A stretch of DNA of 64,000 bases from a virus. Lineage: Duplodnaviria; Caudoviricetes. Position numbers and translations under genes: made by a program. The DNA is taken from positions 31,780 through 95,779 of IMG/VR virus record IMGVR_UViG_3300044694_000083; one strand, given 5' to 3'. The notes under the pieces were generated by a model. It was not told the origin of the DNA. It saw nothing but the letters and a program-made list of their open reading frames with translations, and did not search any database. Below, one piece after another: positions 24,487 through 42,307 of this stretch; the stretch's first letter is position 1; each line of letters starts with the position of its first letter.

Positions 24487-25407
24487 ATGAATGACCAGAA
24501 AATTTATGAGCTGATCGCGAAGCATGGCCGCGTGCGCGCCGTGCAGCTTGCCGACTGGCTCGATGAGGACCTGTCCGATGTCAGCCAGGCGCTGCGCGGG
24601 CTGGTCGACGTGGGCGACGTAGTGCAGGCGCGCGGCACGGCGCCGAACGGCCAGCCGTCGATGTTCTACGAGCTCAGCGCAGATTTCATCCGCTCGCGCG
24701 CTGGCAAGGATATCCTGGCGCGCGTGAATGTGGATCCGGCGCCGAACGTGGCCGAGCCTGAAGCGCCGGCGCCAGCGGCACCCGAGGCTATGCCTGACGA
24801 GCCGGCCGCCGGCACCTATGCCGAGCGCGCCGTTGCCTATCTGACGAAGCACGGCGACACGCCTAACGAGGTCCTGCGCATGGCGCTCGGTCTGGCGCGC
24901 GAGCAGGCGCCGGCCAACTTTCTGAAGTCGGCGATCAACGCCGGCAAGCTGCACAAGGACGGCGGTATCTGGCGCCTGGGCAAGGGGCGCGCCTGGAACG
25001 GCCCGACGATCCCGTCCAAGGGCGGCCCGGTGGCGTCGTTCGATCCGAAGGCCCCGATCGAGTACCCGGCCGGCACAGAGAAGCCAGCCGCCGGCGCATT
25101 CGATACCCTGCTGAAGGCGCCTGAGCCGGCCCAGCCCGCGGCGGTGCCCGTGCCGCCGGTGGCCGTTGCCGCGCCGGTCGACCTGGCGAAGCTGAAGACC
25201 GAGCCGGCCCCCGTCGCCGTGCCTGTGTTCGTGCCGCCGGCGCCGGCCGCCACCGCGCCCGTCTACCGCGCCGCGCTCTGGTCCGATGGGATCCTCGAGC
25301 TGCAGCGCGACGGCCAGACCGTCCTGACGTGCACGCGCGGTGAGGGAGAGTTCCTGTCGTCGTTCCTGGCGCGCACGCTGGGCGAGGCCGGGAAGGTGGC
25401 GGCATGA
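24487..25407 (+). CDS. Winged-helix protein with Pro/Ala-rich linker
   Basis: AVQLADWLDEDLSDVSQALRGLV HTH-like; AAGGA RBS. Confidence 0.65.
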   Translation: MNDQKIYELIAKHGRVRAVQLADWLDEDLSDVSQALRGLVDVGDVVQARGTAPNGQPSMFYELSADFIRSRAGKDILARVNVDPAPNVAEPEAPAPAAPEAMPDEPAAGTYAERAVAYLTKHGDTPNEVLRMALGLAREQAPANFLKSAINAGKLHKDGGIWRLGKGRAWNGPTIPSKGGPVASFDPKAPIEYPAGTEKPAAGAFDTLLKAPEPAQPAAVPVPPVAVAAPVDLAKLKTEPAPVAVPVFVPPAPAATAPVYRAALWSDGILELQRDGQTVLTCTRGEGEFLSSFLARTLGEAGKVAA

Positions 25408-25748
25408 TGGACTTTGCCATGCTCCTGTTCCTGCTGCTGGTCGGTCACGCGCTGGCGGACTATCCGCTGCAGGGTGACTTCCTGGCGCAGGCCAAGAACC
25501 GCAACACGGCGATCGGCAAGGTGTTCTGGCCGCATGCGCTGGCTGCGCACTCAGTCATCCATGGAGGCTTCGTGCTGCTGCTGACCGGGTCGCTCTGGCT
25601 GGCGCTGACTGAGGTGTTCGTCCATGCGATCACGGACTGGCTGAAGTGCGAAGGCCAGCTGTCTCTAAACCAGGATCAGGCCGTGCACGTCGCGTGCAAG
25701 GTCATCTACGCCGCGGCCGTGGTGCTGGTTTCAGCATTGACACCCTGA
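25404..25748 (+). CDS. DUF3307-like membrane protein
   Basis: GHALADYPLQ..HSVIH..HAITD..DQAVH. Confidence 0.8.
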   Translation: MMDFAMLLFLLLVGHALADYPLQGDFLAQAKNRNTAIGKVFWPHALAAHSVIHGGFVLLLTGSLWLALTEVFVHAITDWLKCEGQLSLNQDQAVHVACKVIYAAAVVLVSALTP

Positions 25749-25837
25749 TTCCAAATCAGGCGCGCGGCACGCCGAAAGCCGCGCGTCATCTGCATTCCAC
25801 CTGCTGAGCCACCGCGCCCGGGCGCGCATCGGGCGCA
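25743..25837 (+). repeat. att-like site I (core then arm)
   Basis: CCCTGA-TTCCAAA-TCAGGC; arm CCGGGCGCGCA-TCGGGCGCA 25818-25837; TGA is the upstream stop codon. Confidence 0.8.
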
Positions 25838-25844
25838 CGAGACC

Positions 25845-26366
25845 ATGACCGACGATATCGACCTGCACGAATTCACCCACTTCGTCATCCCTGAAGGCGA
25901 CGCGCACCCCGGCGCCCTGTTCCAAGAGCTGATTGAGCTCGACGAGCATATCCACTTTCTGGAGGAGGAGATCGCCGTCGAGTTCCTGCTGCGCGTGGCG
26001 CCGAAGGTGAAACAGGGCCGGCGCCAGCTCGGCATGGCCATCATCCCCACCGTGCAGGGCGAGCTCAAGGACCTGTTCACGCAGCTGCTCGCGCACTGGT
26101 TCGGCCGAGCGCCGCAATTCCTCATCATCCTGGACCAAGAATTCTGGCTGCAGGCCGACGACATCACGCGCCGCGCGCTGCTAGAACACGAGATGTCGCA
26201 TGTGAAGCAAAGTCTCGACAAGAACGGCGATCCGGCCTTTGATCAGGATGGAAACCCAAAATTCGGTATCCGCGCCCATGACGTAGAAGAATTTCAATAC
26301 ATCGTCCGCAAATACGGCGCATGGAATCAGAACCTGGCCGAGTTCCTGCGCGCGGCTGGTCAATAA
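25845..26366 (+). CDS. Putative phage metallopeptidase
   Basis: ALLEHEMSH..HDVEEF..IVRKYG. Confidence 0.8.
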   Translation: MTDDIDLHEFTHFVIPEGDAHPGALFQELIELDEHIHFLEEEIAVEFLLRVAPKVKQGRRQLGMAIIPTVQGELKDLFTQLLAHWFGRAPQFLIILDQEFWLQADDITRRALLEHEMSHVKQSLDKNGDPAFDQDGNPKFGIRAHDVEEFQYIVRKYGAWNQNLAEFLRAAGQ

Positions 26367-26428
26367 AAACAACACCATTACTCAAAAATGATTTAGAATT
26401 GGTCTGTCTAAACCATTCCAGAACAGAC

Positions 26429-26791
26429 ATGACCTCTCAACAAAACCTGACGCGCGTGGCCGAAGCCGTGCGCGACGCCGCGGCGAAGGCCGTGAGCGAA
26501 AATATCGACCTTCTGCGACGGCAGGGCCACGACCAGGCAGCGACCGCGTACGAGAACGCCGCGCGGCGCGTGATGCAGCTGGACCTCGATCCGATCCTGT
26601 CTGGCGCCGGAGTTGAGCCGGATGCCGACGAGCGCCGCGCCTTCGACAAGGCGGCCGACGCCGCACATTTCAATACCGCGCGCGTTGACGGCGCGCTGTT
26701 CCATCCTGTCACCAAGCGCGCGTTCGCGATCTGGCGCGCAGGTGTTTCGTGGGCTCGTTGTCAATCAACCGAAGGAGAACAAAATGCTTAA
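26429..26791 (+). CDS. Hypothetical protein
   Basis: ORF after AT-rich promoter-like stretch. Confidence 0.55.
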   Translation: MTSQQNLTRVAEAVRDAAAKAVSENIDLLRRQGHDQAATAYENAARRVMQLDLDPILSGAGVEPDADERRAFDKAADAAHFNTARVDGALFHPVTKRAFAIWRAGVSWARCQSTEGEQNA

Positions 26792-26866
26792 GCGCTTCAT
26801 CGACTGGATTTTCTCGATCTTCAGCCCGGCCGAGCCGGAATCCGACGAAGACTGGATGGATCGCCA

Positions 26867-28141
26867 ATGGTAACCGACAACAACGCACCGGCAGGCATCG
26901 ACCTGGACAAGCTGGCCAAAATTGCTGACCGAGTCGACGCGCGCGGGTTGTTTAACGCATCCTGCGACATCCGCGAATGGATCGAAGAAACCCGCTGCGC
27001 CCTCGCTCGCCGGGCTGCAGCAGATGCACCGGCACGTAAGGTTCGCGAAGCGCTGGAGATTATCGCTGGATGGGAATTGCCTGCATCTGGCCAAACTTGG
27101 GACGATGGATCGCCTATGTCATACGGGGCAGCGTTCGGGTCGAATGGGGAGCGTGACTACATGCGTCAGGTTGCATCGGATGCACTACAGGCGCTCGCCC
27201 GGCAGCCCTCTATCGCCCACCCTGTCGGACAGGTATCGCCCGCTATCGACCAAGCTCAGGCCGATCACGACGAAGCCGTCTTACTGCTGTCGGCAGTGTT
27301 CGACGCATGGGAAAACGGCGATCCTTGCTATGAAGACCCGGACACGAGCAGCGGCTTTCTCGGCATAGCATTCCGCTTGGACGACGAAGTGTTCAACCGT
27401 TGCTGCGCATTGCTGAACAGGCTGAACCCGCCGCGCAACGCCGCTCCTCCCGCGCCTGTGTGCCATGCGCCGGCCGGCTGGAAACTGGTTCCGATTGAGC
27501 CAACAGATGAAATGCGGTTGGCCTGCCAATGGCTGGATTATTCCGACCATATCGACGCCGATTGGGCGCGCATGCTAGACGCCGCTCCCGCCGCCCCTGC
27601 CGCTGTCTCGCCTTCCGACGCGACGGGGAAAGCTGACGCTGCCAGTGCGGGCGGTCTGAAGCCGTACGGCTACGCTGTCGAGCAGCCGGACGGGCATGTG
27701 ACGTTCTTCAAGGAGGACCCGACCGGGTTCCGCCAGCAGCAGTGGGCCGACCTGCGCGTGGTCGTGCATACGCTCTACTCAGGCGACAGACCTGCCGCTG
27801 CGGACGCAGGCGGTCTGCTGGTCGGATACGTCGAGCCGGGCCACCTTCAGCAGCTGCGCGAGAACCAGCGGGAAGGCTGTTACATCAAGCTGTACGCCGT
27901 GCCGTTCACTGCCGAAAGCGCGCGCCCGACTGAGCCGCTGTACGCGGCCAACGCAGGCGAAGACACCGCGCGCCTGAACTTCCTGGACACGAACGTTCAC
28001 AAGTTCCGCATGGGCTGGCGCGTCGGCCAGGCGCCTGTCGGCAACCTGTCCGTGCAGTCGATCATCATGGGCGGCCAGCCGATCCGCGAGGCCATCGACG
28101 CCGCCAGAGCAGCCGCTGTGGGCGCAGGAGGTCAACCATGA
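26867..28141 (+). CDS. Mosaic phage accessory protein
   Basis: GWKLVPIEPT..M, DTARLNFL..REAIDAA mosaic segments. Confidence 0.7.
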   Translation: MVTDNNAPAGIDLDKLAKIADRVDARGLFNASCDIREWIEETRCALARRAAADAPARKVREALEIIAGWELPASGQTWDDGSPMSYGAAFGSNGERDYMRQVASDALQALARQPSIAHPVGQVSPAIDQAQADHDEAVLLLSAVFDAWENGDPCYEDPDTSSGFLGIAFRLDDEVFNRCCALLNRLNPPRNAAPPAPVCHAPAGWKLVPIEPTDEMRLACQWLDYSDHIDADWARMLDAAPAAPAAVSPSDATGKADAASAGGLKPYGYAVEQPDGHVTFFKEDPTGFRQQQWADLRVVVHTLYSGDRPAAADAGGLLVGYVEPGHLQQLRENQREGCYIKLYAVPFTAESARPTEPLYAANAGEDTARLNFLDTNVHKFRMGWRVGQAPVGNLSVQSIIMGGQPIREAIDAARAAAVGAGGQP

Positions 28142-28488
28142 CGCGCGACCTGCGGGCGTGGCTGGACGCGGCGGAATACCTGCCCGAGTTCATGCGCGAT
28201 TTCCACGACCAGAAAGACCTGTTCAAGACCATCCACGAACTGGTGAACGAGCACGACGGCACCAAGGCCATCAGCTGGCGCGATGCCCACATCTACACCA
28301 TCGACGTGTTCCTGTGGTTCATGGCGCGGCGCGGGTACACGCTGCAACGCAGTCGGGCGAAGTGCGAATTTTTGGACATCCACCAGACCATCGCGGACCA
28401 GACCAAAACGCGCCAGGACGCCTTCACGGCAGCCATGAGAGCAGCCGCCCAGGAGGCGGCAGCGCAGAAGGGAGGCGCCGATGCGTGA
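28138..28488 (+). CDS. Conserved phage hypothetical protein
   Basis: YLPEFMRDFHDQKDLFK..FLWFMARRGYTLQ. Confidence 0.7.
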   Translation: MTRDLRAWLDAAEYLPEFMRDFHDQKDLFKTIHELVNEHDGTKAISWRDAHIYTIDVFLWFMARRGYTLQRSRAKCEFLDIHQTIADQTKTRQDAFTAAMRAAAQEAAAQKGGADA

Positions 28489-28675
28489 TTTCTTTAAGCG
28501 CCTGATGTGCGGCCGCAAGGGGCATTGGCTGAGCCATGTCAGGAACATCTACGGCGACGAGATCAATTACCGAGGCGGCAAGCGCAGCGTCTGGAAGTGC
28601 GACAACTGCGGCGCAATCAAGCTGCGCGATTACCTGCACGATGAACAGAAAGGAACCCCACCCCATGGCCGCTGA
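28481..28675 (+). CDS. Small Zn-binding phage protein
   Basis: LMCGRKGH..CDNCG. Confidence 0.55.
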   Translation: MRDFFKRLMCGRKGHWLSHVRNIYGDEINYRGGKRSVWKCDNCGAIKLRDYLHDEQKGTPPHGR

Positions 28676-29234
28676 ACAAAACATCGATGCCGAGCACGAG
28701 CGCGCAGCTTTCGAGGCTTCCGGAATCACCGGCAGGCTGTATCGCAACGCCACGCCGGGCGGAACGGACTACTACGAGGACAGCCACACGGAAATGGCAT
28801 GGCGCGCGTGGCAAGAACGCGCGCGCCGCTCTGCCGCTATTGGAGAGGGCAATCCTGTCGAATTCGACGGAATTAAAACCCCAGAATTCGGGGGGATTGG
28901 AGAGAGCGGACTGCCACAAGCTGCGCAGGGCGTGAAGACGTGGCAGGAGCGCATGACCGAAGCTGGTGGAAGTGGCTGGGTGCCACACTCGTTCATGGTT
29001 GCCGAGATCGCAGACCTCCGCGCCCAGCTTGCGAGCCAGAGCCAGGGAATGCCGACCGACGCGCAGATCATCGCCGCGCTGCACGCCAACGGTATCGACA
29101 CGTACCCGAGCAAATACGGCTTCGACGCGGTACAGATATCGGCCACCAGCGTGCCCGGCCTTCGCAAAGTGCTGGAGACACTCGCCGCACCGCTGCTGTC
29201 CAGCGAACAGCAGGCGACCAAGGAGGGGAAATGA
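28665..29234 (+). CDS. Hypothetical protein
   Basis: ERAAFEA..AWRAWQERA phage motif. Confidence 0.6.
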   Translation: MAAEQNIDAEHERAAFEASGITGRLYRNATPGGTDYYEDSHTEMAWRAWQERARRSAAIGEGNPVEFDGIKTPEFGGIGESGLPQAAQGVKTWQERMTEAGGSGWVPHSFMVAEIADLRAQLASQSQGMPTDAQIIAALHANGIDTYPSKYGFDAVQISATSVPGLRKVLETLAAPLLSSEQQATKEGK

Positions 29235-29734
29235 GCACCCGCCGCAAGACACCGAGGCTCGCTCGTCCCGGCGAGGTCCTTACCCTGGTCGACGAGATGA
29301 TGGCATCGCCGGTCAATCCGATGCCGGAGGCCGACGCCGCGGACCGCGTCGCCGTGGCGCGCCTGCACCTGGCGAACATCCAGACGGCGCCCGTGCCGAC
29401 CGTGATGGACTGGCGCGTGTGCGCGATGGTCGGTAACGTGGTCGAGGTGATGATCGAGCTCGGCTACATCGACGATCCGGACGATCTGCTGATGGATGGC
29501 CAGGCCGCGCTGAAGGACGCCGCCGAGCGCGCGCTGGAGCGCACCGGCGTCATCCGCTTCACGGGCGACGAGCTGCGCGTCGTGGGCGAGCTGATCGACG
29601 GGTTCGCCGACATCCTCGGCTACCTGCCGCACCGCAAGGTGATCCGGGCGTTCCGCGAGACCGACAAGCGCATGCGCGCGCTGGACGCCGGGCAGCGCCG
29701 GCCGGCCGACTACGTGGCGCGCCGGCGCGCCTGA
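29231..29734 (+). CDS. Hypothetical protein
   Basis: GGAGG RBS; stop lies in att-like core H. Confidence 0.65.
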   Translation: MSTRRKTPRLARPGEVLTLVDEMMASPVNPMPEADAADRVAVARLHLANIQTAPVPTVMDWRVCAMVGNVVEVMIELGYIDDPDDLLMDGQAALKDAAERALERTGVIRFTGDELRVVGELIDGFADILGYLPHRKVIRAFRETDKRMRALDAGQRRPADYVARRRA

Positions 29735-29822
29735 CTGTGCATCTGGGCGTCAGCGCCGGCCGCGCCGCTGTACGCCTGCATTTCACCAGCGCGGCAAACA
29801 TTTTGGGCGCCGATAGGGCGCA
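29729..29822 (+). repeat. att-like site H (core then arm)
   Basis: GCCTGA-CTGTGCA-TCTGGG(CGTCAG); arm TTGGGCGCCGA-TAGGGCGCA 29803-29822. Confidence 0.8.
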
Positions 29823-29833
29823 GAAAGTAAAAA

Positions 29834-30124
29834 ATGAGCTATTCGTTTGGTATCAAGGCAGCTGACAAGGCTGCTGCAAAGGAGGCGGTCGCCGCCAAGT
29901 TCGACAGCGAAGTGGTGGCGCACCAGCCGGTGCACGTGCGCGACCGCGCCGCTGTGCTGGCCAATGTCGGCAGCGTCATTGACCTGCTGGCCGATGACGA
30001 CACCAAGGACATCATGGTTTCGGTCAACGGCTATGTCAGCTGGGGTGCAACCGTCGACGGTACGGAGCAGTTCAGCACCGTGAGCGTCAGCGCCACTGCA
30101 AGCTACGCGACGCGCGCAGCCTGA
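29834..30124 (+). CDS. Hypothetical protein
   Basis: MSYSF..SVNGYVSW; starts 11 nt after arm H. Confidence 0.65.
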   Translation: MSYSFGIKAADKAAAKEAVAAKFDSEVVAHQPVHVRDRAAVLANVGSVIDLLADDDTKDIMVSVNGYVSWGATVDGTEQFSTVSVSATASYATRAA

Positions 30125-30205
30125 TCCATCACCCGGTCGCGCCAGCACGGGCGGCCGCCCATCTGAGACGGTCTCATGATACTGAGAATTTCCTGAGACT
30201 GCTCA

Positions 30206-30222
30206 AATCGTGACGGTATCCT
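30206..30222 (+). promoter_or_regulatory. Late promoter variant
   Basis: AATCGTGA-CGG-TATCCT upstream of terminase operon. Confidence 0.55.
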
Positions 30223-30252
30223 GAAGCCTGACTTGTTGAGCTCCAGGAACCC

Positions 30253-30903
30253 ATGCCTCGCCCGAAGGAAGAACGAAAAGACGAGATCATTGCCGCCATC
30301 CGCCAGCACCTGCGACTGGTCGGCCCGCGCGACTATGATGGTCTCATGGCGAAGTACCCGGAGATGAGCCGGGCAACGTTCTACCGCTATCTCAAGGCAG
30401 CGCGCGAGCAGGAGGAGGCCAGCGCCGCGGCCCATGGAACGGGCGCGCTCCGTCTTGCGCAGCAGCGGATCCGCAGCCAGGTCGAGCCACCGGACAAGGT
30501 CCAAGCCAAGATCAAGGCGCACCTGCCCACGGCGCCGTCGCCGGCCGTGGTCGCCGCCGACCCGGTCAACGCCTCGCGCGCGTTCCAGTTCTTCGCGTTC
30601 TTCAACCAGATCGTCGGCGACGCCGAGCTGCTGCGCGGCACGGCCGTCATCAAGAACGACGACGGCACCGAGAAGGTCCGCAACCCGGCCATGCTGGAAA
30701 AGAGCATGCGCGGCCGCCTGGCGATCCTGGACACCTACCTGCACAGCGTCGAGGCGGTCTACAACATGGAGCGCATCCGAGAGCTGTATGACCTGGTGAT
30801 CGAGGAGGTGGGCAAGGCCTCGCCCGACATCCAGATGGCGGTGCTGGCGCGCCTGCGAGAGCTGGACAACCGCCGCGGCCTGACCATGAACGGGAACGTC
30901 TGA
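30253..30903 (+). CDS. Putative terminase small subunit
   Basis: N-terminal HTH (MSRATFYRY); coupled directly upstream of TerL. Confidence 0.6.
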   Translation: MPRPKEERKDEIIAAIRQHLRLVGPRDYDGLMAKYPEMSRATFYRYLKAAREQEEASAAAHGTGALRLAQQRIRSQVEPPDKVQAKIKAHLPTAPSPAVVAADPVNASRAFQFFAFFNQIVGDAELLRGTAVIKNDDGTEKVRNPAMLEKSMRGRLAILDTYLHSVEAVYNMERIRELYDLVIEEVGKASPDIQMAVLARLRELDNRRGLTMNGNV

Positions 30904-33014
30904 TGGCGTTCGGGAAGAAGAAGGCGCCCAAGGTCGACCCGTTTGGCAGCCTCGGCGAGCTGGTGGCGCAGCTCGAGGCGCGCACGGGCTTCCGCGTCGA
31001 CGTCAGCGGAATCGGCGACAAGACGTTCATCGAATGGTGCGAGGACCTGGCCGCCAAGGGCCTGAAGGTCGACGGCAAGCCGTTCCGCCTGGACGATCGC
31101 CCGGCGCTGCGCCCGATCTACGAGGCCATCCCCAGCACGCGCGAGGAGGCCAAGGACGCCATGCTGATCGCCATGAAGGCGACCCAGCTTGGCCTGACGG
31201 TGTGGGAGGTGCTGGCCAACATCTACATGGCGACGAAGTGGGAGCCGGTTTCGATCGGCATGTTCATGCCGTCGATGACCACGGCCATCCACAAGTCCGA
31301 GCACCGTTTTATGCGCATGGTGCGCTCGGCGCCCGACCTGTACCGCCTGCTGATCAACGGCCGCGACGCCGATGGCAATGCGCAGAAGGTCGGCGAGGGC
31401 AACGTGCTAACAAGGAAGGTCGGCGAGTCGCTGCTGCTGTTCCTCTGGACCACCGGCAAGGTGACGACCGAATCCGTGCCGATGGACGTCGTCACCCTGG
31501 ACGAGGTTCAGGAGATGGCCCTGGACCACATCGACAAGGTCCGGGCCCGTATGGGCGATTCCGAGGTGGCTTTCACGCTGATGCTGTCCACGGCCAACAT
31601 GCCGGACCTGGACATCCACTTCTGGTACCTGGAAGGCACGCGCGAGGTCTGGCACACCGAATGCCCGCACTGCAAAGCCATGTCCGACCTATCGGACCCG
31701 GCCGGAATCTTCCCGGACAAGTCGATCGGCTACAACACCGGCCAGCACGCCGGCGCGCCGATGAACGAATACGTCTGGACATGCCCGAGCTGCGGCGGCT
31801 GGATCCAGGATCCGCAGATCGGGCGCTACATCGTCACCAATCCGGGCGCCAACCCGAAAATCCGCTCGTTCCTGCTGCCGCGCACCATCTCGCCGAAGAT
31901 GACGCCGCGGAAGATGATCGAGGCCTGGCGCCGCGCGAAGACCGGCAACCAGAAAAAGAGCTTCTACAACCGCACGCTGGCGCGCCCGTACATCGACGCC
32001 GACCAGCTGCCGGTGACGATGGCGCACTGCCTGGCCGCCATGGAGGCCGGCATTGCCGCTGGCATCAAGTGGGAGAAGAAGCACGACGGCGCCAGCAGCT
32101 ATTTCTGCGGCATTGACCAGATGGGCGGCTTCAACGCCGTCATCATCAAGAAGCGGCTGCCGAATGGCCGCCAGGCGGTCGTGCACGTCGAGGCGGTATT
32201 CGACAACGATCCGTTCGAGCGCTGCGCCGAGCTCATGAACATCTTCCGGATCGAGGTCTGCGTGGTTGAGCAGCTGCCGAACGTGAACGATGCGCGCCGG
32301 TTCGCGAACCGCTTCCCTGGCCGCGTGTTCCTGGCCGGCTATGCCGACCTGCGCGACGACCAGATGGTGTGGGGCGACGACTTGTCGAAGTCGGACCGGC
32401 GCACGTCCGAGGACGATCGGTCGCGCTACACTGTCACGCTGAACCAGTACAAATGCATGCAGACCGCGCTGTTCCGCGTGCGTGAAGGCCACTGCATTTT
32501 CCCGAACGCCGACGACCTGGTGCAGGACGTGGTCGAGAACGGCGAGACGAAGCGGATCCCGATCCTGCGCGACTGGGTTTTCGTCCACTACACGAAGACC
32601 GCGCTCGTGGTCGACGACGGCTCGGAGACAGTCAGCGGCAAGCCGAAAAAGGACATGGAGGCGCGCAAGCTGCGCATGAAGGTCCTGAAGGTCGGCATGG
32701 ACCCGCACTACAGCTACGCCAACATGCTGTGCGACGTGGCCTGGGCCCGGTCGCACGGAACGACCACGTTTATCCTGCCCGACACAACACCAACCGGAGC
32801 GCCCGTGATCAAACCAGAAGACATCGGCGCCGCGCCGCTGATCAATGCCGTGCACGAGCTCCGCCAGGAGGCTATGGCCGGCACGTGCGGCCGCTGCACG
32901 GCCTACGACGAGACCGACGGCATGTGCATGGAACGCTGGTTCAAGGTGAAGGCCTCGGATCCGGCCTGCCCGATGTTCGACGAGGACCCGTACGCGGGCG
33001 CTGCGCCCGAATAG
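30903..33014 (+). CDS. Terminase large subunit (GpA-like)
   Basis: MKATQLGLT, TLDEVQEM, CPHC/CPSC, FYNRTLARPY, CGIDQ. Confidence 0.88.
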   Translation: MAFGKKKAPKVDPFGSLGELVAQLEARTGFRVDVSGIGDKTFIEWCEDLAAKGLKVDGKPFRLDDRPALRPIYEAIPSTREEAKDAMLIAMKATQLGLTVWEVLANIYMATKWEPVSIGMFMPSMTTAIHKSEHRFMRMVRSAPDLYRLLINGRDADGNAQKVGEGNVLTRKVGESLLLFLWTTGKVTTESVPMDVVTLDEVQEMALDHIDKVRARMGDSEVAFTLMLSTANMPDLDIHFWYLEGTREVWHTECPHCKAMSDLSDPAGIFPDKSIGYNTGQHAGAPMNEYVWTCPSCGGWIQDPQIGRYIVTNPGANPKIRSFLLPRTISPKMTPRKMIEAWRRAKTGNQKKSFYNRTLARPYIDADQLPVTMAHCLAAMEAGIAAGIKWEKKHDGASSYFCGIDQMGGFNAVIIKKRLPNGRQAVVHVEAVFDNDPFERCAELMNIFRIEVCVVEQLPNVNDARRFANRFPGRVFLAGYADLRDDQMVWGDDLSKSDRRTSEDDRSRYTVTLNQYKCMQTALFRVREGHCIFPNADDLVQDVVENGETKRIPILRDWVFVHYTKTALVVDDGSETVSGKPKKDMEARKLRMKVLKVGMDPHYSYANMLCDVAWARSHGTTTFILPDTTPTGAPVIKPEDIGAAPLINAVHELRQEAMAGTCGRCTAYDETDGMCMERWFKVKASDPACPMFDEDPYAGAAPE

Positions 33015-33092
33015 CGCCCGAACGGCGGCGCCGGCGCCCGGTTCCCTATGAAAACCCGGCCCGGCGCCCTGATTGCTACTCTGGGCGTCAGG
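33002..33092 (-). repeat. att-like site A (arm then core on + strand)
   Basis: TGCGCCCGAAT-AGCGCCCGA 33002-33021; CCCTGA-TTGCTAC-TCTGGG(CGTCAGG) 33067-33092. Confidence 0.85.
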
Positions 33093-33825
33093 CCGCGGCT
33101 GCGGTGTCAGCGGCTGAGCAGATTGAATGCTGCTGCTGCCACTCGAGGAACTTGTGCATTCCCAAGGGCTCTATTGCGCTCCAGCCTGAAGGGAATCCCA
33201 TCAGCCACTCGCTCCACTCTGGGTTCACGCGGCCAGTCGATGTGGTGGATAGTCCTTCCACTTCCGCCAGACGGCTGGCCAAAGTGTCCGACTTGCCTTT
33301 GTGGCGCCCTCCACACTTCTTCCCGATCGACGCCGTCAGCGTAGGCCAGAATCCAGATCCTCTCTCGCTCGTGCGGAGCGTCGGCATGGTGCGCTCCGAT
33401 GACGCCCCATTCCGCATCATACCCCAGCGCGGCCAGGTCCCCGAGAACTCGTCCGAGTCCTCGAGCAGTGAGCATTGGACTGTTTTCCACCCACACGAAG
33501 CGCGGTCGTACTTCGCGAACGATGCGATGCTGGTGCGACCATAGTCCACTGCGCTCGCCATCGATGCCAGCTCCCGAACCGGCTGCGCTGATGTCCTGGC
33601 ATGGAAAGCCGCCAGAAACGACATCAACAATTCCTCGCCATGGTCGGCCGTCAAAAGTTGTGACGTCAGACCAAATCGGGAAAGGTCGAAGGATTCCGTC
33701 GTTTTGTCGTTGCGCCAAAACGGTTGCTGCGTAGGCATCACGCTCAACTGCACATACGGTTTTCCATCCAAGGAGGTGCCCGCCGAGAATTCCTCCACCA
33801 GCGCCCGCGAAAAGAGCCAGCTCAT
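33088..33825 (-). CDS. Overlapping alternative-frame MTase subunit carrying motif IX
   Basis: Open 245 codons inside MTase gene; WPT and NPEWSEWLMGFPSGW; true start uncertain. Confidence 0.65.
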   Translation of the reverse strand: MSWLFSRALVEEFSAGTSLDGKPYVQLSVMPTQQPFWRNDKTTESFDLSRFGLTSQLLTADHGEELLMSFLAAFHARTSAQPVRELASMASAVDYGRTSIASFAKYDRASCGWKTVQCSLLEDSDEFSGTWPRWGMMRNGASSERTMPTLRTSERGSGFWPTLTASIGKKCGGRHKGKSDTLASRLAEVEGLSTTSTGRVNPEWSEWLMGFPSGWSAIEPLGMHKFLEWQQQHSICSAADTAAAA

Positions 33826-33829
33826 TCAT
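33107..33829 (-). CDS. C5-cytosine DNA methyltransferase, main subunit
   Basis: LFAGAGG, GGFPCQD, VENS, HERERI, ALGNA (motif X); no motif IX. Confidence 0.9.
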   Translation of the reverse strand: MNELALFAGAGGGILGGHLLGWKTVCAVERDAYAATVLAQRQNDGILRPFPIWSDVTTFDGRPWRGIVDVVSGGFPCQDISAAGSGAGIDGERSGLWSHQHRIVREVRPRFVWVENSPMLTARGLGRVLGDLAALGYDAEWGVIGAHHADAPHERERIWILAYADGVDREEVWRAPQRQVGHFGQPSGGSGRTIHHIDWPREPRVERVADGIPFRLERNRALGNAQVPRVAAAAFNLLSR

Positions 33830-33957
33830 GGTTTCCTGTAAGTAGTGTTAGATCCGGTACTTCAGCGGATCAATTGAACTGGCTCAATTTTACTCGAAAA
33901 TAAGTAATGCGTGTTGGTGGAAAGCGGGAAATGCCGTGAAGGTGCGGGTATTTCTGG

Positions 33958-34048
33958 TGCGCCCGACTAGCGCCCGAAGTCGTCAGCGCGGGCCAGCTCT
34001 CCAGGGAAAAGCCGGCCAAAAACCCAGATCCGTTATCTGGGCGTCAGG
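33958..34048 (-). repeat. att-like site B
   Basis: TGCGCCCGACT-AGCGCCCGA; CCCAGA-TCCGTTA-TCTGGG(CGTCAGG) 34023-34048. Confidence 0.85.
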
Positions 34049-34796
34049 CTGCGGCCCGTGGCATGGCGAGCTCGTACGCATGCGCGACCCTGGCATCGGC
34101 CGTCGCGAAGTGCTTGGCGTCGTCTTCCATGCCGACGAACAGCCGTCCGGTGTTGGCGCACGCGACGCCTGTCGTCCCGCTGCCCATAGCAAAGTCCAGC
34201 ACCACCTGGCCGGCATTGGTGTAGGTGCGCACCAGGTATTCCATCAGCGCCAGCGGCTTTTGCGTCGGGTGCAGCTTGCTGCGCTGCTTGTCACTGGAGA
34301 AGAACTGGACGCTGCGCGGGTAGCGGCTGGTCGAGTCGTAGACGGTCAACTGGTTGCCCTGGCCGTAGCATTCGCTCGCGACGGTCTTGCGCTTCGTGCT
34401 CTTGCGGGCGTGGCCGTGCGTCATCTGCGGATTGTAGGTTGGCTGGCGGCTGCAGAAGACAAGCACCGTTTCGTGCGCGCGCAGCGGCGCCTTCTTCGCG
34501 TTGAGGAAGCCGGTCGCATTTCCCTTCTCCCAGACCCAGTCGTGCCGGAACCACCCGGGGTTGCTCATCACCAGTGCGCTGGAAAAAGGCTGGCTGGCGG
34601 TAAACACGATCACGCCGCCCGGCTTCACGATGCGTCGCAGCTGCTCCCACATTTGATCGAGCGGGATAACCGCATCCCACGCGTTGCGCGTTGTTCCATA
34701 AGGAGGGTCACAAACAACGGCGTCCACGCTGGCCGCCGGCAGGTTACGCATCGCCTCGATGCAGTCGCCGAGGTGCAAGGTATAGGGTCTGGTCAT
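34044..34796 (-). CDS. N6-adenine/N4-cytosine DNA methyltransferase (beta class)
   Basis: DPPY, HPTQKP, VLDFAMGSGTT. Confidence 0.92.
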   Translation of the reverse strand: MTRPYTLHLGDCIEAMRNLPAASVDAVVCDPPYGTTRNAWDAVIPLDQMWEQLRRIVKPGGVIVFTASQPFSSALVMSNPGWFRHDWVWEKGNATGFLNAKKAPLRAHETVLVFCSRQPTYNPQMTHGHARKSTKRKTVASECYGQGNQLTVYDSTSRYPRSVQFFSSDKQRSKLHPTQKPLALMEYLVRTYTNAGQVVLDFAMGSGTTGVACANTGRLFVGMEDDAKHFATADARVAHAYELAMPRAAA

Positions 34797-34859
34797 AGAA
34801 AGTAGTGGAACGTCACGCCCGGCGCGTGGCCGGGTGAAAACGCGTGCAATTTAGTGAAG

Positions 34860-34960
34860 TGCGCCCGATCGGCGCCCGAATTTACCTCCTGCTGCTGGAG
34901 GTCATTGTATCATAAAAGATAAATCCCATGGGCAACCAGATTCAGCATCTGGGGGTCAGG
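34860..34960 (-). repeat. att-like site C
   Basis: TGCGCCCGATC-GGCGCCCGA; ACCAGA-TTCAGCA-TCTGGGGGTCAGG; 34947-34960 identical to attP 1601-1614. Confidence 0.88.
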
Positions 34961-34980
34961 CTCGCGCAGCGACGGAGCTC

Positions 34981-35003
34981 CGTCGTGAAACGATAATGCG
35001 GCC
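34981..35003 (+). promoter_or_regulatory. Late leaderless promoter
   Basis: CGTCGTGA-AAC-GATAAT-6nt-ATG. Confidence 0.7.
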
Positions 35004-35681
35004 ATGAGCACCATCCTCTTCATCAAGGCGCGTGACCTGCGCGACACGCACACCAGCGATATGTTTGCCACGCACCTCGAGACGCGGACGCGAAAAGATG
35101 GGGTGACCCAGCAATACCACGTGGCAGCGCCGAAGCCGGCCGCGCCTGCGCATGCTGGCCATGACAGCCGGCGCGAGGCCATGGCTGCGTTCGATGGCGA
35201 GCGCTCCGACGCTGTGGCGCTGAAGCGCGGCGACAAGTGGCTGGCCGTGCGACGTAGCGAGGCCGAGAAGCACCTGGCGGACGGCTGGAAGGATCCGAGC
35301 GGGGAGGTCGGGAAGCCGGCAACTGTCAGCGAGGCGCTGCGCGACCTGGCCGGCAGCAAGGCCAAGAGCATCGACTTCGACAGCCTGACCTACCTCAAGA
35401 ACACGGTCGGCCTGAAGGGGCTGAGCGAAGATGAGGCGCGCCACGTGGGCAACGCCATCAGCCTGATCTCGCACATGCGCGACACCGGCCGGCTGAGCGG
35501 CACGCACATGCTGCAGATCCGCGACAAGCTGCGCGGCAAGGCAGTGCTGGACATGGTCGAGCAGGTCGCCGCCCGGATGAAAGAGGTTCGCGATCCCCTC
35601 GACGCGGTGCGCGAGTATTTCTACGGCCGTGAGAACATGACCAAGGCGCTCGTCTTCCTGCGCCCTATCGGCGCCCGATAA
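35004..35681 (+). CDS. Putative internal head (cargo) protein
   Basis: N-term ILFIKA, RTRKDG hairpin, C-term MTKALVFLR; late promoter. Confidence 0.6.
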   Translation: MSTILFIKARDLRDTHTSDMFATHLETRTRKDGVTQQYHVAAPKPAAPAHAGHDSRREAMAAFDGERSDAVALKRGDKWLAVRRSEAEKHLADGWKDPSGEVGKPATVSEALRDLAGSKAKSIDFDSLTYLKNTVGLKGLSEDEARHVGNAISLISHMRDTGRLSGTHMLQIRDKLRGKAVLDMVEQVAARMKEVRDPLDAVREYFYGRENMTKALVFLRPIGAR

Positions 35682-35733
35682 CGGCGGCGCGCCAGCATCC
35701 GCAGAGAGCGGACAACCAGACTCAGGGTCTGGT
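35659..35733 (-). repeat. att-like site D
   Basis: TGCGCCCTATC-GGCGCCCGA; ACCAGA-CTCAGGG-TCTGGT 35715-35733. Confidence 0.8.
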
Positions 35734-35750
35734 GCTCGCCGCGCGGCCGC

Positions 35751-35773
35751 CGTCGTGACCCGACAATCTTTAC
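35751..35773 (+). promoter_or_regulatory. Late leaderless promoter
   Basis: CGTCGTGA-CCC-GACAAT-6nt-ATG. Confidence 0.7.
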
Positions 35774-36184
35774 ATGCAAACCATACTCTTCCTGAAGGCG
35801 CGCGTGGGCCCATACCTGCGCCGCGGCAAGTGGGTGTCCGGCTACGAGGGGCGCGCCTCGCGCGTCGAGACGCCGGCCGGTCAGCGCGACATGTTCAAGC
35901 AGCCGCCGAACCCGTTCAAAGGCGTCGACCCGGTCGCGGCGACGCCGGACCTGTTCGAGGGCCAAGTGCCGCCGAAGCAGGATCTGCCGACGGTCGAGCA
36001 CGACGGCGACACCTGGTACATCGTCAGCACGGGCGCCGTGGGTGCCGACGGCAGGGTGATGGCGCACCTGTCGAGCGCGACGCGGATGCAGGGATCGATG
36101 CCGAAGAAGGTCGTGGCATGGATCACGCCGCCCGGCCGCGCCGGCGAGCTCGCCAAGGCTATCCTGCTGATGCGCGCAGCATGA
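35774..36184 (+). CDS. Putative internal head (cargo) protein
   Basis: N-term ILFLKA, C-term LAKAILLMR; late promoter. Confidence 0.6.
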   Translation: MQTILFLKARVGPYLRRGKWVSGYEGRASRVETPAGQRDMFKQPPNPFKGVDPVAATPDLFEGQVPPKQDLPTVEHDGDTWYIVSTGAVGADGRVMAHLSSATRMQGSMPKKVVAWITPPGRAGELAKAILLMRAA

Positions 36185-36220
36185 GCCCGATCGCCTGGTG
36201 GTTCATGTGGCTGGGTCTGT

Positions 36221-37180
36221 TCACGTCACCGTCAGCATCGCCAGCGCGGCGAGAGCCTGAGCCGCCTTCGTCGGAGCGAGCAGCTTGAGCGGCAGCAGCC
36301 AGAGCAGTGTGGCGAGCGGCGTGTCTCGCCTGACGTGCTTACGGTAGAAGGCGGGGGTGATGCTGGTCACTTCCTTGAATGACGTCGTGAAGTGCGATTG
36401 GCTCGCGAACCCGCATAGAAGTGCAATTTGCGCCAGGCTTTGTTTGCTGGTTGCCAGGTAATATTTGGCGGTATCCACTCGTCGGCGTAACACGTAAAGC
36501 AGCGGTGTCCGCCCCGTCGCAGCCTTGAACGCGCGTGTGAAGTGCGATGGACTGAGGCCGAGCATAGCAGCGAGCTCATTGGATTTGATCGATCGGTCAA
36601 TATTCTGGTCAATATATGAATCGACCTGAGCGACCTCTAATTCTCCGATGGGCTCTGTCTCTTGTATCTGCCGATTCTCCCTGGTTTTGCATACAACCTT
36701 CAGAACGCGATAGACGATCGACAAAATCAGGGCATCGATCAGTGGTGGCAGGGCGATTCGTGGTGTTTCCAGAGAGATCGATTTCAGTAGCGCGACCGCA
36801 GTGGCCAGAGTCATGTTTGGCCGCACCTCGAAATACACGAAATTGCAGTCGTAAAGATCACTGTTCATGGCAAGAACGCGGTTGAACCAACGCTCCGGAA
36901 TAATCACGGCAGCCGTAATCATGGGTTCATTCGTCCGCACATGGACAGTGGTGTTTTTCGGCACAAAAAACACCGAATTGGGAGCGTATTCCTCGCGCGA
37001 ATGGTCCTCCCCATTTACGAGCAGTGATCCTTTTGCTTTTGTTTCGAGCAGGAATATCGCATGAGTGTCGAAACGAAGGGTGGCTGGTCCGATCGCATCG
37101 GTGAATACATGCACCTCCAAATCGCGGATTGATCTGACCGTGTGTGTTTCCGATTTCCAAAACGACAGAGTCTCCGGCAT
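36221..37180 (-). CDS. AraC-family transcriptional regulator (moron)
   Basis: LSPSHFTRAFK..IALLCGFASQSHFT..TPAFYR; visibly lower GC. Confidence 0.9.
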   Translation of the reverse strand: MPETLSFWKSETHTVRSIRDLEVHVFTDAIGPATLRFDTHAIFLLETKAKGSLLVNGEDHSREEYAPNSVFFVPKNTTVHVRTNEPMITAAVIIPERWFNRVLAMNSDLYDCNFVYFEVRPNMTLATAVALLKSISLETPRIALPPLIDALILSIVYRVLKVVCKTRENRQIQETEPIGELEVAQVDSYIDQNIDRSIKSNELAAMLGLSPSHFTRAFKAATGRTPLLYVLRRRVDTAKYYLATSKQSLAQIALLCGFASQSHFTTSFKEVTSITPAFYRKHVRRDTPLATLLWLLPLKLLAPTKAAQALAALAMLTVT

Positions 37181-37212
37181 TGCTACCTCCAGCTATAGGA
37201 GGCGTAACATTT

Positions 37213-37306
37213 TGCGCCCGATGGGCGCCCGAAGCCAGCCTGGGCGAGTCAAAAACTCGTGCGGAGCCATGCTTGTCGATCATGACGCCCAGATTAAAGA
37301 TCAGGG
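37213..37306 (-). repeat. att-like site E
   Basis: TGCGCCCGATG-GGCGCCCGA; (TGACG)CCCAGA-TTAAAGA-TCAGGG 37288-37306. Confidence 0.85.
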
Positions 37307-37474
37307 CGCCGACTTTCGCTCGAACGCGAAGTGGCCGAGGATCCCCAGCAGCAGGATCGCGATCACGTGCGTGCTGTAGTCGTGCACGCCGAAGGCCTGG
37401 GCCTGGTCGACGGCGAACATGCCAAACGCCGTCAGGCCGGCCACGAAGAATATTTTGCTGATCACGTTGTTCAT
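37301..37474 (-). CDS. Small two-TM membrane protein (57 aa, not in ORF track)
   Basis: MNNVISKIFFVAGLTAFGMF..IAILLLGILGHFAFERKSAP*; GAGGA RBS; stop in core E. Confidence 0.55.
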   Translation of the reverse strand: MNNVISKIFFVAGLTAFGMFAVDQAQAFGVHDYSTHVIAILLLGILGHFAFERKSAP

Positions 37475-37524
37475 TGTTCAAAATCCTCGGGTCTCGTTTT
37501 TGAGTATCGATAGTTCATGCCATG

Positions 37525-37716
37525 TCAAGTGCCAGCCTTGACAGAGTCTGCACGCCTGCGTACCGGGCTGAACTGGTTGTCCCAGTACGCCTGCCACATG
37601 GCGTTCCACGCCGCGCGCCGCGTCGTGCCGTGGCCGACGACGAATATCCGGCGACAAGTATAGACGCCGTCGCGGTAGGAGATGCGCGGCTTGATGGCGA
37701 TCACGGGCCCGGTCAT
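37525..37716 (-). CDS. Hypothetical protein
   Basis: ATGA-coupled. Confidence 0.5.
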   Translation of the reverse strand: MTGPVIAIKPRISYRDGVYTCRRIFVVGHGTTRRAAWNAMWQAYWDNQFSPVRRRADSVKAGT

Positions 37717-38039
37717 GGCATGGCCCTCCCGAACTCGACAGCAGCGTTGAATATGGCCTGTCGCATCGCTGCTGCAGTGTCGCCCTCGTAGAAATGCTTC
37801 GTCAGCGGGCCGCCCGCCGGCAGCACCTCGATTCGACGTCCGGACACGACGCGGTGCATCACGTCGAATTCAAGATAGGCCGCCAGATCCAGCGCCTGAC
37901 CGCTATCCCGCCTTGGATCCCATAACATGTCGCGTGCCACGTTCTGGCGTTGCTCGGCAAGCCACCAGAAATCCCACTCGTGCCGCTTTTTGCCGGCGGC
38001 TTTCGCCGCCAGCGCCAGGAGCTCGCGCTCATTCTCCAT
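37713..38039 (-). CDS. Conserved phage hypothetical protein
   Basis: RELLALAAKAAG..WDP..GQALDLA..RQAIFNAAVE. Confidence 0.65.
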   Translation of the reverse strand: MENERELLALAAKAAGKKRHEWDFWWLAEQRQNVARDMLWDPRRDSGQALDLAAYLEFDVMHRVVSGRRIEVLPAGGPLTKHFYEGDTAAAMRQAIFNAAVEFGRAMP

Positions 38040-38286
38040 CGCGGGCCTCCTTCCACTCCAGGAACGGCACGCGCACGATGCGATGGAAGTCGTCAGCCGC
38101 TCGTGCGTTCGTGTCGAGCTCGTTGCGGCTCTCGATGCCGCACGCGGTCAGGATGAATTCCTTGGCGGCCGCCTCGTCGAACTTGACGCCGTCGCCGGTT
38201 TCCCCGGCCAGGTGCTCCAGCCAGGCACAGAACTGCGGATCCCGGCAGAACGTGCACGCCATGATGCAGAGGTCGCGAGTGCTCAT
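38029..38286 (-). CDS. Conserved phage hypothetical protein
   Basis: CRDPQF..CGIESRNELD. Confidence 0.65.
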   Translation of the reverse strand: MSTRDLCIMACTFCRDPQFCAWLEHLAGETGDGVKFDEAAAKEFILTACGIESRNELDTNARAADDFHRIVRVPFLEWKEARDGE

Positions 38287-38440
38287 TGCGGGGCTCCATT
38301 CACCAGAAACCAAAGCAGCAGACAGCCAATCACCGCCAGACCGATCAGCGCGCGCCGCTCGCGCACCGTCAGCGGCCGCTCCTTGCGCAACGGGCAGCGG
38401 TCGCTCTGGCCGCAGTTGTGGTTGCAGCAGGTCGGGCGGC

Positions 38441-39283
38441 TCACGGTTGCACCTTGGCGATGATGTCGGACAGTTTTATTTGACGCACAACCGTTCCCTC
38501 AAGCCCGTTGTCGCATTTCATGACGGCAACGTAGCACGCGTCACGCACCGCCTCGGCGATCGCCATATCGCGCCCGCCGCGGTTATCTTCGCTGCGCCGG
38601 CCAACCGGCGGGATCCACATCTCGCCGCCGCGGTCCGTGTAGCCATAGCGATAGAGCGTGCGCGTCGCGCGATCCAGGTCGGCTTGAACCTTTTCGAAAT
38701 CGGATAGCGCTCGCTCGTGCATTTCGGCCGCGACGTAGGCGTTTTTGCCGCTTACGATCGTCGGCAGCACCAGCTGGCCGTTATCCACCGCGTGGCGCAG
38801 GGCGGCGTTGGCGAAGTGCTGAAGGCTCGACATGCGCACGTCGCCCTGATCCACCTCGCGCCAGGCTCGCAGCATCTCGCCGTCCTTCATCCCCGTCACC
38901 GGGTACTGCTTCGCCGGCGCCGGCCATGCCCACAGCTCAGGGTTCATCTCGCCCCATGTCGGCCTTGCGGTGACTCGGCTGCCGTCCTTCTTGTCGACCA
39001 GTTCGTCGCCCACGAATACCGGCTTGCCGTCGATGTGGCCGAGCGGGGTCATGACGAGCGTGCGCTCCTCGGCCCGCGAGTAGTACGCCGGCATCGCACC
39101 ATTGACGTCCCACTTCATAAGCACGTCCTCTTCCTGGGTTTGGATCAGACCGAGGATGTTGCAGCAGGATCTGTCGCGGTGGTCCCACTTCAGGACCTCG
39201 ACTTTCTCGCCGCTCGCGCAGCAGAACGGCGCTCCAGCGCGCGCGTGTTCAAGGTTAAACGGTCGGCTTTCTTGTGTTTTCAT
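38441..39283 (-). CDS. Mosaic hypothetical protein
   Basis: RPFNLEHARAGAP N-terminus; starts 7 nt after arm F. Confidence 0.65.
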   Translation of the reverse strand: MKTQESRPFNLEHARAGAPFCCASGEKVEVLKWDHRDRSCCNILGLIQTQEEDVLMKWDVNGAMPAYYSRAEERTLVMTPLGHIDGKPVFVGDELVDKKDGSRVTARPTWGEMNPELWAWPAPAKQYPVTGMKDGEMLRAWREVDQGDVRMSSLQHFANAALRHAVDNGQLVLPTIVSGKNAYVAAEMHERALSDFEKVQADLDRATRTLYRYGYTDRGGEMWIPPVGRRSEDNRGGRDMAIAEAVRDACYVAVMKCDNGLEGTVVRQIKLSDIIAKVQP

Positions 39284-39290
39284 TGTGCGT

Positions 39291-39385
39291 TGCGCCCTAA
39301 CGGCGCCCGTTGGTTAATCGAAATTTCTAGAAGAAATTGTATCAGAAAAGATTAAGCGCGTGCGTAACCTGATTGGTTGTCAGGT
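39291..39385 (-). repeat. att-like site F
   Basis: TGCGCCCTAAC-GGCGCCCGT; ACCTGA-TTGGTTG-TCAGGT 39367-39385. Confidence 0.8.
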
Positions 39386-39598
39386 GCTCACGATGCGGCT
39401 GATGTATTCGCGCAACTGGCGGCGCACAGCCCAGAGCTTCTGCGCGCAGCCCGGCCGATTGAACAGGTACTCGCTCGGCGTGAGCATGTAGGAGCGTCCG
39501 AGCTGCTGCTCGATGCCGCCGACAGTCACGACGCGTACCATGATCCACTCGACACAGCCTCCCTTGTGACAGAGCTTGCGATTGCGAACGCGCTTCAT
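39380..39598 (-). CDS. Hypothetical protein
   Basis: ATGA-coupled; stop in core F. Confidence 0.5.
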   Translation of the reverse strand: MKRVRNRKLCHKGGCVEWIMVRVVTVGGIEQQLGRSYMLTPSEYLFNRPGCAQKLWAVRRQLREYISRIVST

Positions 39599-40044
39599 GC
39601 CGCCATCCTCATCATGATTTTGTCGAGCTCGCCCAACTGATGGCCGGTGCGTGGCCGCGACTCGTTGCGGTGGTACCACGCGCGGCGCGCGGCCAGGTGG
39701 TCCTTCTTGCGCTGCTGCTTCGTCAGCTTGTGGTCCTCGCCCGGGCCGGCGGTGAAAACGGCGATGTAGTCGCGACCCTGGTTCTCCGGCGGCAGGTGGT
39801 CCTCGATGTGGCACAGGCCCTCGGCGTGCAGCTTCCTGACGGCCTTGCGCGCGGTCTCGTACTGGATGTCCAACTTCTCCGCGAGCTGCTTCGTAGTGCC
39901 CGGCATCGCGGCCAGCAGCCGCTGGCGCGTGTCCGACTTCGTCAGCGGCGTCGCCAGCTTGTTGCGCCACTGGGTGTAGTGGTTGTTGCAGAGGCCGCGC
40001 GCGCGGACCTGGTGCGCGCAGCCGTCGCGGGTGCAGGTCTTCAC
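39595..40044 (-). CDS. Zn-finger plus HTH protein
   Basis: CTRDGC..RGLCNNHY; TTKQLAEKLDI HTH. Confidence 0.65.
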   Translation of the reverse strand: MKTCTRDGCAHQVRARGLCNNHYTQWRNKLATPLTKSDTRQRLLAAMPGTTKQLAEKLDIQYETARKAVRKLHAEGLCHIEDHLPPENQGRDYIAVFTAGPGEDHKLTKQQRKKDHLAARRAWYHRNESRPRTGHQLGELDKIMMRMAA

Positions 40045-40997: not shown

Positions 40998-41038
40998 ACC
41001 TTCCTTTCATCGCGCCCGGCGGACCGGGCGCATCGGGG

Positions 41039-41502: not shown

Positions 41503-41525
41503 GGTTTTCCTTGTGGTGGGGTTGA

Positions 41526-42130: not shown

Positions 42131-42142
42131 GTTTTCCTTGAT

Positions 42143-42236: not shown

Positions 42237-42307
42237 CAGGCGTCGCGCTACGATGTATCAATAATAATCAACGCTAGGAAAATAATCAAGCGCAACAATC
42301 CGCCTGT

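Follow-up and report, generated by a model that had tools for sequence, protein, structure and literature searches.

Ten copies of a composite DNA element of about 95 bp lie in the accessory region of a Caudoviricetes genome, within the 64,000-nucleotide stretch analyzed here (the window; bases 31780–95779 of the 95,779-bp IMG/VR record IMGVR_UViG_3300044694_000083, whose whole genome is called G000). Each element joins a short dyad, the core, to a tandem repeat, the arm, across a spacer. The sites resemble the phage's own attP/attB, keep a fixed spacing, have a double-stranded character, are conserved family-wide and leave the C-termini of the flanking gene products unchanged. Judging from these sequence comparisons, we put at about 0.6 the probability that each site is a miniature attL-type attachment (att) site for the heterobivalent tyrosine integrase encoded by the phage itself, and that genes are packed against such sites as boundary modules.

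A pattern search of the whole genome found exactly ten copies of the core, CCWGA-N7-TCWGG, each located 39–59 nt from a tandem GGGCGC-N5-GGGCGC arm; away from these sites, exact tandem arms occur only at attP, which has two. All ten modules are intergenic or at gene boundaries, as the earlier note on this DNA had stated of every site. Read from core through spacer to arm, three sites point rightward, namely J (22182–22272, +; core CCAGAGAGCAAGTCAGG at 22182–98, 57-nt spacer that includes a hairpin and a T-run, arm 22256–72), I (25744–25836, +; core 25744–60, 59-nt spacer, arm 25820–36) and H, which heads the terminase operon (29730–29821, +; core 29730–46, 58-nt spacer, arm 29805–21). The other seven, D included, all point leftward. 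They run from A, which closes the leftward array (33003–33090, −; arm 33003–19, 48-nt spacer with a strong hairpin, core 33068–84 plus GCGTCA) through B (33959–34046, −; arm 33959–75, 48-nt spacer, core 34024–40 plus extension), C (34861–34958, −; arm 34861–77, 58-nt spacer with the extended −10 sequence TGATACAAT, core 34936–52 plus GGGTCAGG), D (35660–35732, −; arm 35660–76, 39-nt spacer, core 35716–32 with half-site GAGCACCAGA), E (37214–37305, −; arm 37214–30, 58-nt spacer, core 37289–305) and F (39292–39384, −; arm 39292–308, 59-nt spacer with a TGATACAAT promoter, core 39368–84) to G at the head of the array (42144–42235, −; arm 42144–60, 58-nt spacer, core 42219–35). Site polarity is uniform per block irrespective of gene orientation; D sits between two rightward paralogous late genes and is oriented against its neighbors. 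The window spacers fall into classes of 58, 48 and 39 nt, that is, steps of roughly one helical turn, and spacers of different sites in one genome are about 45–60% identical, no better than chance.

The same architecture recurs in related phages. The terminase gene terL is 82% identical at the nucleotide level to that of Bordetella phage vB_BbrM_PHB04 (PHB04), which relates the window phage to PHB04. Sites were collected from six phages (n = 51): the window (10), IMGVR_UViG_3300037466_002724 (G001; 9), PHB04 (6), a provirus (G008; 9), IMGVR_UViG_3300049460_000123 (G006; 8) and IMGVR_UViG_3300044684_000161 (G010; about 8); a seventh phage, the 96-kb relative G007, was compared as well. A search of genome contigs for closer relatives yielded one 5-kb Caballeronia contig, an IMG/VR search with exact site sequences returned only G001, and a metagenome scan added one further genuine site, on 1-kb contigs. 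Across the six phages, the core dyad has an exact 7-bp center in 51 of 51 sites and the arm-to-core spacing is 57–59 bp in 46 of them, the exceptions being 39, 46, 48, 48 and 50 bp.

Both parts of the module are also found at the phage's real attachment site; the cores match the attP/attB halves and the arms match the attP arm motif, which upholds the description of the sites in the earlier note as att-like. The sole integrase in the genome is encoded at 135–1388 (−) and is a tyrosine integrase with PF13356 (Arm-DNA-bind_3, DUF4102) and PF00589 domains. The attP region (1449–1880, +) holds a 3′ fragment of tRNA-Arg(ACG) at about 1583–1640, which ARAGORN did not call as a tRNA and whose anticodon stem-loop supplies the core, CTAGA-CTACGAA-TCTGGGGGTCAGG. 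The arm motif GGGCGCAGGTCGGGCGCA flanks this core at 1457–74 and 1732–49, and an inverted arm pair lies at 1855–77. The dispersed half-sites GAGCACCWGA and TCTGGG(C/G)GTCAG are the two halves of the tRNA-Arg anticodon arm, GAGCACCAGA / TCTGGGGGTCAG. One half-site class, (C)TGACGCCCAGA, which becomes TCTGGGCGTCAG when reverse-complemented, corresponds to the variable loop together with the 3′ strand of the anticodon stem, and the 13-mer TCTGGGGGTCAGG at site C is identical to the tRNA/attP core. The other class, GAGCACCWGA (D and F), matches the 5′ side of the anticodon arm, which is intact in G008; the D half-site GAGCACCAGA is the 5′ half of that arm. In provirus G008, the gene for an integrase 68% identical to that of the window adjoins an entire tRNA-Arg(ACG), after which come about ten repeats of (T)TCGGGCGC; this arrangement confirms the attachment site.

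An attP core flanked by the arm motif is found in the window, G001, G008, G010 and G007 and, with a degenerate motif, in PHB04; in G000, G008 and G010 the attP region is the densest GGGCGC cluster. A single integrase gene is present in each of the window, G001, G006, G007, G008 and G010. The integrase N-terminal domain is about 60–70% identical (by eye) in all seven phages and the remainder splits into two classes, a pattern that parallels the invariant arms and varying cores of the sites. The attP core of G007 is a different one; its 11-mer GACATTTATCA has just two occurrences in the 96 kb of that genome, one inside attP and one 42 nt upstream of the arm of the J-type site. The G010 attP core lies 59 nt from an arm, the same geometry as in the dispersed sites. 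G010, a free phage genome, also carries a complete tRNA-Leu(CAA) gene right after the attP arm (65017–65158), and its candidate attP core has the same anticodon loop sequence, CTCAAAA.

Several observations weigh against assigning the sites to the integrase. The ten window centers all differ, from one another and from the attP center CTACGAA, leaving no shared overlap for strand exchange, and orthologous centers are conserved between the window and G001 in only three of nine cases, a misfit with simple homology-dependent strand exchange. The window attP arms are 116–125 bp from the core rather than 58 bp. The core does not keep one polarity with respect to the arm: it flips from site to site, and apparent orthologues, E for example, can differ in it. 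The spacers revealed no IHF-type bending site, and no arm cluster was found beside the G006 int gene although G006 has eight good sites. A candidate G006 attP near 81.3 kb was rejected as a terminator hairpin beside a tRNA-like pseudogene, and no other attP came to light in this phage; this segment (81100–81330) contains D-arm-like and T-arm-like parts without an ARAGORN call, followed by a GGGCGCC/GGCGCCC terminator hairpin. Another candidate for the arm binder, the AraC-family regulator encoded at 36221–37180, was rejected because it is absent from G006.

The spacers carry expression signals of different kinds. Across the 51 sites they fold better than shuffled sequence (mean z −1.5). Many contain a canonical GC-rich hairpin and T-run ending at the arm, as in terminators, and others, those of C and F and their G001 orthologues, contain an extended −10 promoter of the TGnTACAAT type. 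A consensus scan for σ70 promoters and terminators over the region gave counts no higher than in shuffles. Orthologous spacers of the window and G001 are often 73–80% conserved. Since the distance between arm and core is constant whatever the spacer encodes, a protein complex contacting both ends is suggested.

The dyad itself is read as double-stranded DNA, half-site by half-site, with no stem maintained, because there is no base-pair covariation: of 43 sites compared, 21 have complementary W positions in their two half-sites, just the number expected by chance. This result rules out a folded site of the attC kind as well as an RNA hairpin, and it bears directly on the comparison with integron cassettes drawn in the earlier note. 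Were the sites attC-type single-stranded hairpins, the folded bottom strands would be recombined and the stop codon would lie in the inverse core. Stops do lie inside the arm-distal half-site, as TAA often does in the RYYYAAC of attC, and the distal half in G006 reads (T)AACAGA. But the random W complementarity contradicts a hairpin, the stem would be only 5 bp without an extrahelical-base architecture, the window sites have CCWGA/TCWGG half-sites and no RYYYAAC/GTTRRRY cores, and the sole integrase is of the DUF4102 type with an arm-binding domain, not an IntI. The analogy therefore fails as a mechanism and holds only loosely, and we consider an attC-type site very improbable. Equally improbable are copies of a small mobile element, similar to miniature inverted-repeat transposable elements or repetitive extragenic palindromes, or an element acting at the RNA level such as an mRNA hairpin or tRNA mimic. 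The modules are indeed about 95 nt long, repeated and intergenic, with a core resembling an anticodon stem-loop. The spacer identity of about 45–60% is at chance level, however, so that the modules are not copies of a master element, and position 2 of the center is not the invariant U33 of tRNA. Rfam and ARAGORN returned no RNA or tRNA match in the window; without such a match and without pairing covariation, the reading as an RNA or tRNA element was rejected.

Genes touch the sites at both ends. The earlier note had placed upstream stop codons within six of the cores or their extensions, and five of the six hold. At I (25746–48), H (29732–34), E (37301–03) and F (39380–82), the TGA of the arm-distal CCTGA is the stop of the upstream gene, respectively gene 25404–25748, gene ~29231–29734, gene 37301–37474 and a 72-codon open reading frame (ORF) at 39380–39598. 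For I, H and E the reading frame has support from homologues in G001, G006 or G007, and the real start of the H upstream gene is probably near 29231. At F, the listed 257-aa ORF (39380–40153, −) is an artefact, out of frame with the real gene 39595–40044 (GC content at third codon positions, GC3, 0.95); only the last 72 codons look coding, and they meet that gene in an ATGA overlap. At B, the N6/N4 methyltransferase gene (34044–34796) stops at 34044–46 in the GCGTCA extension, in a frame backed by a Pfam match and the G001 orthologue. The claim that did not survive concerns A, where the ORF 33088–33825 is a spurious overlapping frame and the real gene, 33107–33829, stops 22 nt before the core. 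Five of the seven co-directional upstream genes thus end inside a site; that of J stops 27 nt before it. On the other side of the module, the starts follow the arm much as the earlier note had described, at 6, 8, 12, 8 and 13 nt past the arms of J, I, H, F and G and at 33 nt for E. The genes in question encode a DUF4406 protein (ATG) at J, a metallopeptidase (ATG) at I, the product of gene 38441–39283 at F, an acyl carrier protein (GTG) at G, which is divergent from the portal gene, and the AraC-family regulator at E. Starts are more distant at C (64 nt), which lies in a divergent gap adjoining the gene 35004 late promoter, and at B (129 nt), and no gene follows the arm of A or D. Two genes end in arms, again in agreement with the earlier note: terL stops at 33012–14, its last codons and stop overlapping arm A, and the rightward gene 35004–35681 (..LRPIGAR*) ends across arm D.

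Some neighboring genes have features of their own. The real gene upstream of A (33107–33829, −) encodes a C5-cytosine methyltransferase that matches the Salmonella phage S9-5 enzyme at 154 of 245 aligned positions (63%), the C-terminal motif included, and has a GC3 of 0.54 versus about 0.85 in resident genes. Its leader (33830–33958) contains a palindrome, TTACTTATTTTCGAGTAA, overlapping a TAAAAT −10-like box, and a near-identical palindrome, TTACTCATTTTTGAGTAA, is present just downstream of int in G006. The paralogous rightward genes 35004 and 35774, with N-termini of the form MxTILFxKAR, each have the box CCGTCGTGA(N4)GAYAAT about 6 nt before the ATG (34980–35032 and 35750–35802); a box so near the ATG suggests leaderless late transcripts. 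In the Caballeronia contig, a similar gene that follows terL has this box in front of it as well. Immediately upstream of J, two genes at 21329–22155 encoding a 175-aa protein and a 99-aa zinc-ribbon-like protein are kept in that place in all relatives and are candidate regulators.

The overlaps of genes with the sites are best read as compaction, with genes packed against a module of fixed length; the constant feature is the abutment, not a built-in stop. G007 has homologues of many array genes and almost none of the sites. The G007 homologues of the genes upstream of E, I and H end within 1–4 residues of the window proteins and abut the next gene, as in ..ERKSAP* (window) vs ..ERKTA* (G007) at E and ..LVSALTP* vs ..LVAAI-P* at I. 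This comparison, which the earlier note had proposed as a check on its reading of the stops, goes mostly against that reading. In the window, terL reads into arm A, which makes its tail about 6 residues longer than in relatives. The terL stop lies directly against the arm in G010 and the Caballeronia contig, and a convergent terL abuts or overlaps an arm in three phages. Five related phages likewise have genes abutting sites, with different stop codons and stop positions: the upstream stop falls −6 to +9 from the first core base in about half of all sites of the relatives, as a TGA in the half-site, a TAA or TAG just before it (TAACAGA in G006) or a stop inside the center. Adjacent co-directional genes elsewhere in the window also commonly overlap by a few bases.

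We propose the following working model. The site would consist of two core-type half-sites around a 7-bp center and two tandem arm-type sites about 58 bp away. The integrase, as the putative binder, is predicted to bridge arm and core with the spacer looped, the spacer carrying the terminator of the upstream gene or the promoter of the downstream gene. Given the fixed module length and a tight genome, upstream genes may run up to or into the arm-distal half-site, which happens to contain TGA; downstream genes would start at the shortest distance past the arm that leaves room for a ribosome-binding site. As boundary joints, the modules would most likely allow accessory genes to be gained, lost or exchanged among related genomes, and may also act as integrase-dependent insulators.

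Recombination at the sites is possible. In its full form, an integron built on a lambda-type integrase, DNA would be cut and rejoined at the 7-bp centers, and a unit made of the proximal half-site, spacer, arm, gene or genes and the distal half-site with its stop would be excised, inserted or swapped, either by in-register exchange between co-infecting relatives sharing a center or in the heterology-tolerant manner of IntDOT and Tn916. We regard this only as a tentative alternative. The full dyad with its exact center in all 51 sites favors it, as does the bias of the centers toward Y at position 1 and R at positions 6–7, like the attB center CTACGAA. Array polarity is uniform regardless of gene orientation, and A and D are without a downstream gene. 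The N6/N4 methyltransferase block (window 34024–34940) is 83% identical to G001, homology stopping at the centers of both flanking cores, and the center TGCTGAA is upstream of the methyltransferase gene in the window and downstream of it in G001. Identical centers across genomes number 5 versus 0.88 expected (P about 0.004). The array of provirus G008 is co-directional and upstream of terL, that is, on the other side of terL, with a different cassette order, and some cassettes, such as the C5-methyltransferase with its GC3 of 0.54, are recent imports.

Other observations argue against such cassettes. The earlier note had units moving as whole ORFs. Homology between relatives breaks at the core/repeat center at C, H and F and at the arm/gene junction at B and J, which does not bear out a movement of such units by recombination at the core. 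No two centers match within one genome and the orthologous centers of the two closest genomes mostly differ. From one relative to another, the sites keep their places and the intervening genes differ; a site that stays as the genes on both sides of it change does not travel with those genes. Sites with identical centers in distant genomes have no flanking genes in common. Under an "address" model, with centers kept between relatives, three of nine orthologous centers are kept, and identical centers are enriched across genomes with unrelated flanks. The array genes are mostly syntenic, highly diverged orthologues (36–67% protein identity, versus 90% for terL), again unlike cassette behavior. 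It is doubtful, if conceivable, that in PHB04-like temperate phages the resident lambda/P4-type integrase acts on some ten attL-like sites, each with an individual 7-bp center, for capturing, shuffling and exchanging accessory cassettes. Such a cassette system would be a natural one, based on a heterobivalent integrase, possibly tolerant of heterology and with gene ends fused to the cores.

The modules could instead be regulatory boundaries only, at which the integrase or another protein recognizing arm and core loops the spacer without strand exchange, silencing or insulating the accessory genes and the terminase operon, for instance during commitment to lysogeny. This too is possible, though we would not favor it. 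In all six phages, most sites have their arm 6–16 nt ahead of a start codon, and spacers hold a promoter (C and F) or a terminator ending at the arm. The sites at the heads of operons, J, H and G, are those conserved in every relative, and differing centers are no obstacle to binding. G001 has an extra composite site directly upstream of the int start (66950–67016), absent from the window, in which a perfect 9-bp palindrome, AGCACCAGA-N7-TCTGGTGCT, lies 28 nt from an arm. This is a candidate integrase autoregulation site, and a palindromic core plus arm in this place is as expected for autoregulation. On the other hand, A and D lack a gene on which they could act and D runs counter to its neighbors, the next start is 129 nt away at B and 64 nt away at C, the core has no fixed polarity with respect to the arm, and a complete, exactly spaced recombination-type dyad is not needed for regulation.

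The leftward array occupies the terL–portal gap (33014–42332), 9 kb of accessory genes mostly on the opposite strand that include two methyltransferases, the AraC-family regulator and the acyl carrier protein. The terL–array–portal layout is common to the window, PHB04, G001, G006, G010 and G007. If the integrase occupies the modules, it has a second job within the phage's own genome, which could be marking the joints where accessory genes such as methyltransferases, regulators and small genes are gained or swapped, or insulating them. This would provide a concrete mechanism for gene-boundary mosaicism in one Burkholderiales phage family and extend the known uses of the arm-plus-core att architecture. 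The stops and starts that touch the sites are explained by compaction and are unremarkable alone. We found no description of such boundary modules in the literature.

Among known systems, morons, which are autonomous promoter–gene–terminator insertions, likewise place genes of foreign composition between conserved genes, as with the C5-methyltransferase (GC3 0.54), but they are not defined by conserved flanking protein-binding sites. Mycobacteriophages have start-associated sequences and stoperators (PMC3203893), each a single short asymmetric motif that either is recognized by a repressor or has an unknown binder. These elements too are phage-specific intergenic repeats oriented with transcription a few bases before starts, yet they have neither a resemblance to attP nor a paired dyad at a fixed distance. 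The pdif/dif sites of XerC/XerD and the engineered heterospecific lox/FRT exchange systems share with the modules short dyads with variable centers that bound gene modules, and in both cases differing centers would block intragenomic deletion and permit in-register exchange; here, however, there are arm-type sites, a phage-encoded heterobivalent recombinase, a 7-bp center and weak center conservation (3 of 9).

Integron cassettes with their attC sites are similar in having sites at gene 3′ ends, often with the stop in the site, co-oriented regardless of gene orientation and with variable accessory genes between them. They differ in that the modules show no hairpin folding and no conserved 7-bp core sites, belong with another integrase family that has an arm-binding domain, and delimit several units that are multi-gene with their own promoters. 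A comparison can also be made with the attL/attR sites of heterobivalent integrases, such as lambda Int and the P4-like DUF4102 enzymes that target tRNA anticodon loops. Unlike these, the modules are ten extra copies in the phage genome, each with an individual center and at a gene boundary, and they have variable core polarity and an unconserved spacer with terminators or promoters and no recognizable bending-protein site. What they share with attL/attR is inverted half-sites around a 7-bp center that corresponds to the anticodon loop, a distinct arm motif placed a few helical turns away from the core and repeated in tandem one turn apart, an integrase with an N-terminal arm-binding domain, and site motifs that also occur in the phage's real attP. 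The geometry of the module resembles that of the C′-H′-P′ arm of lambda.

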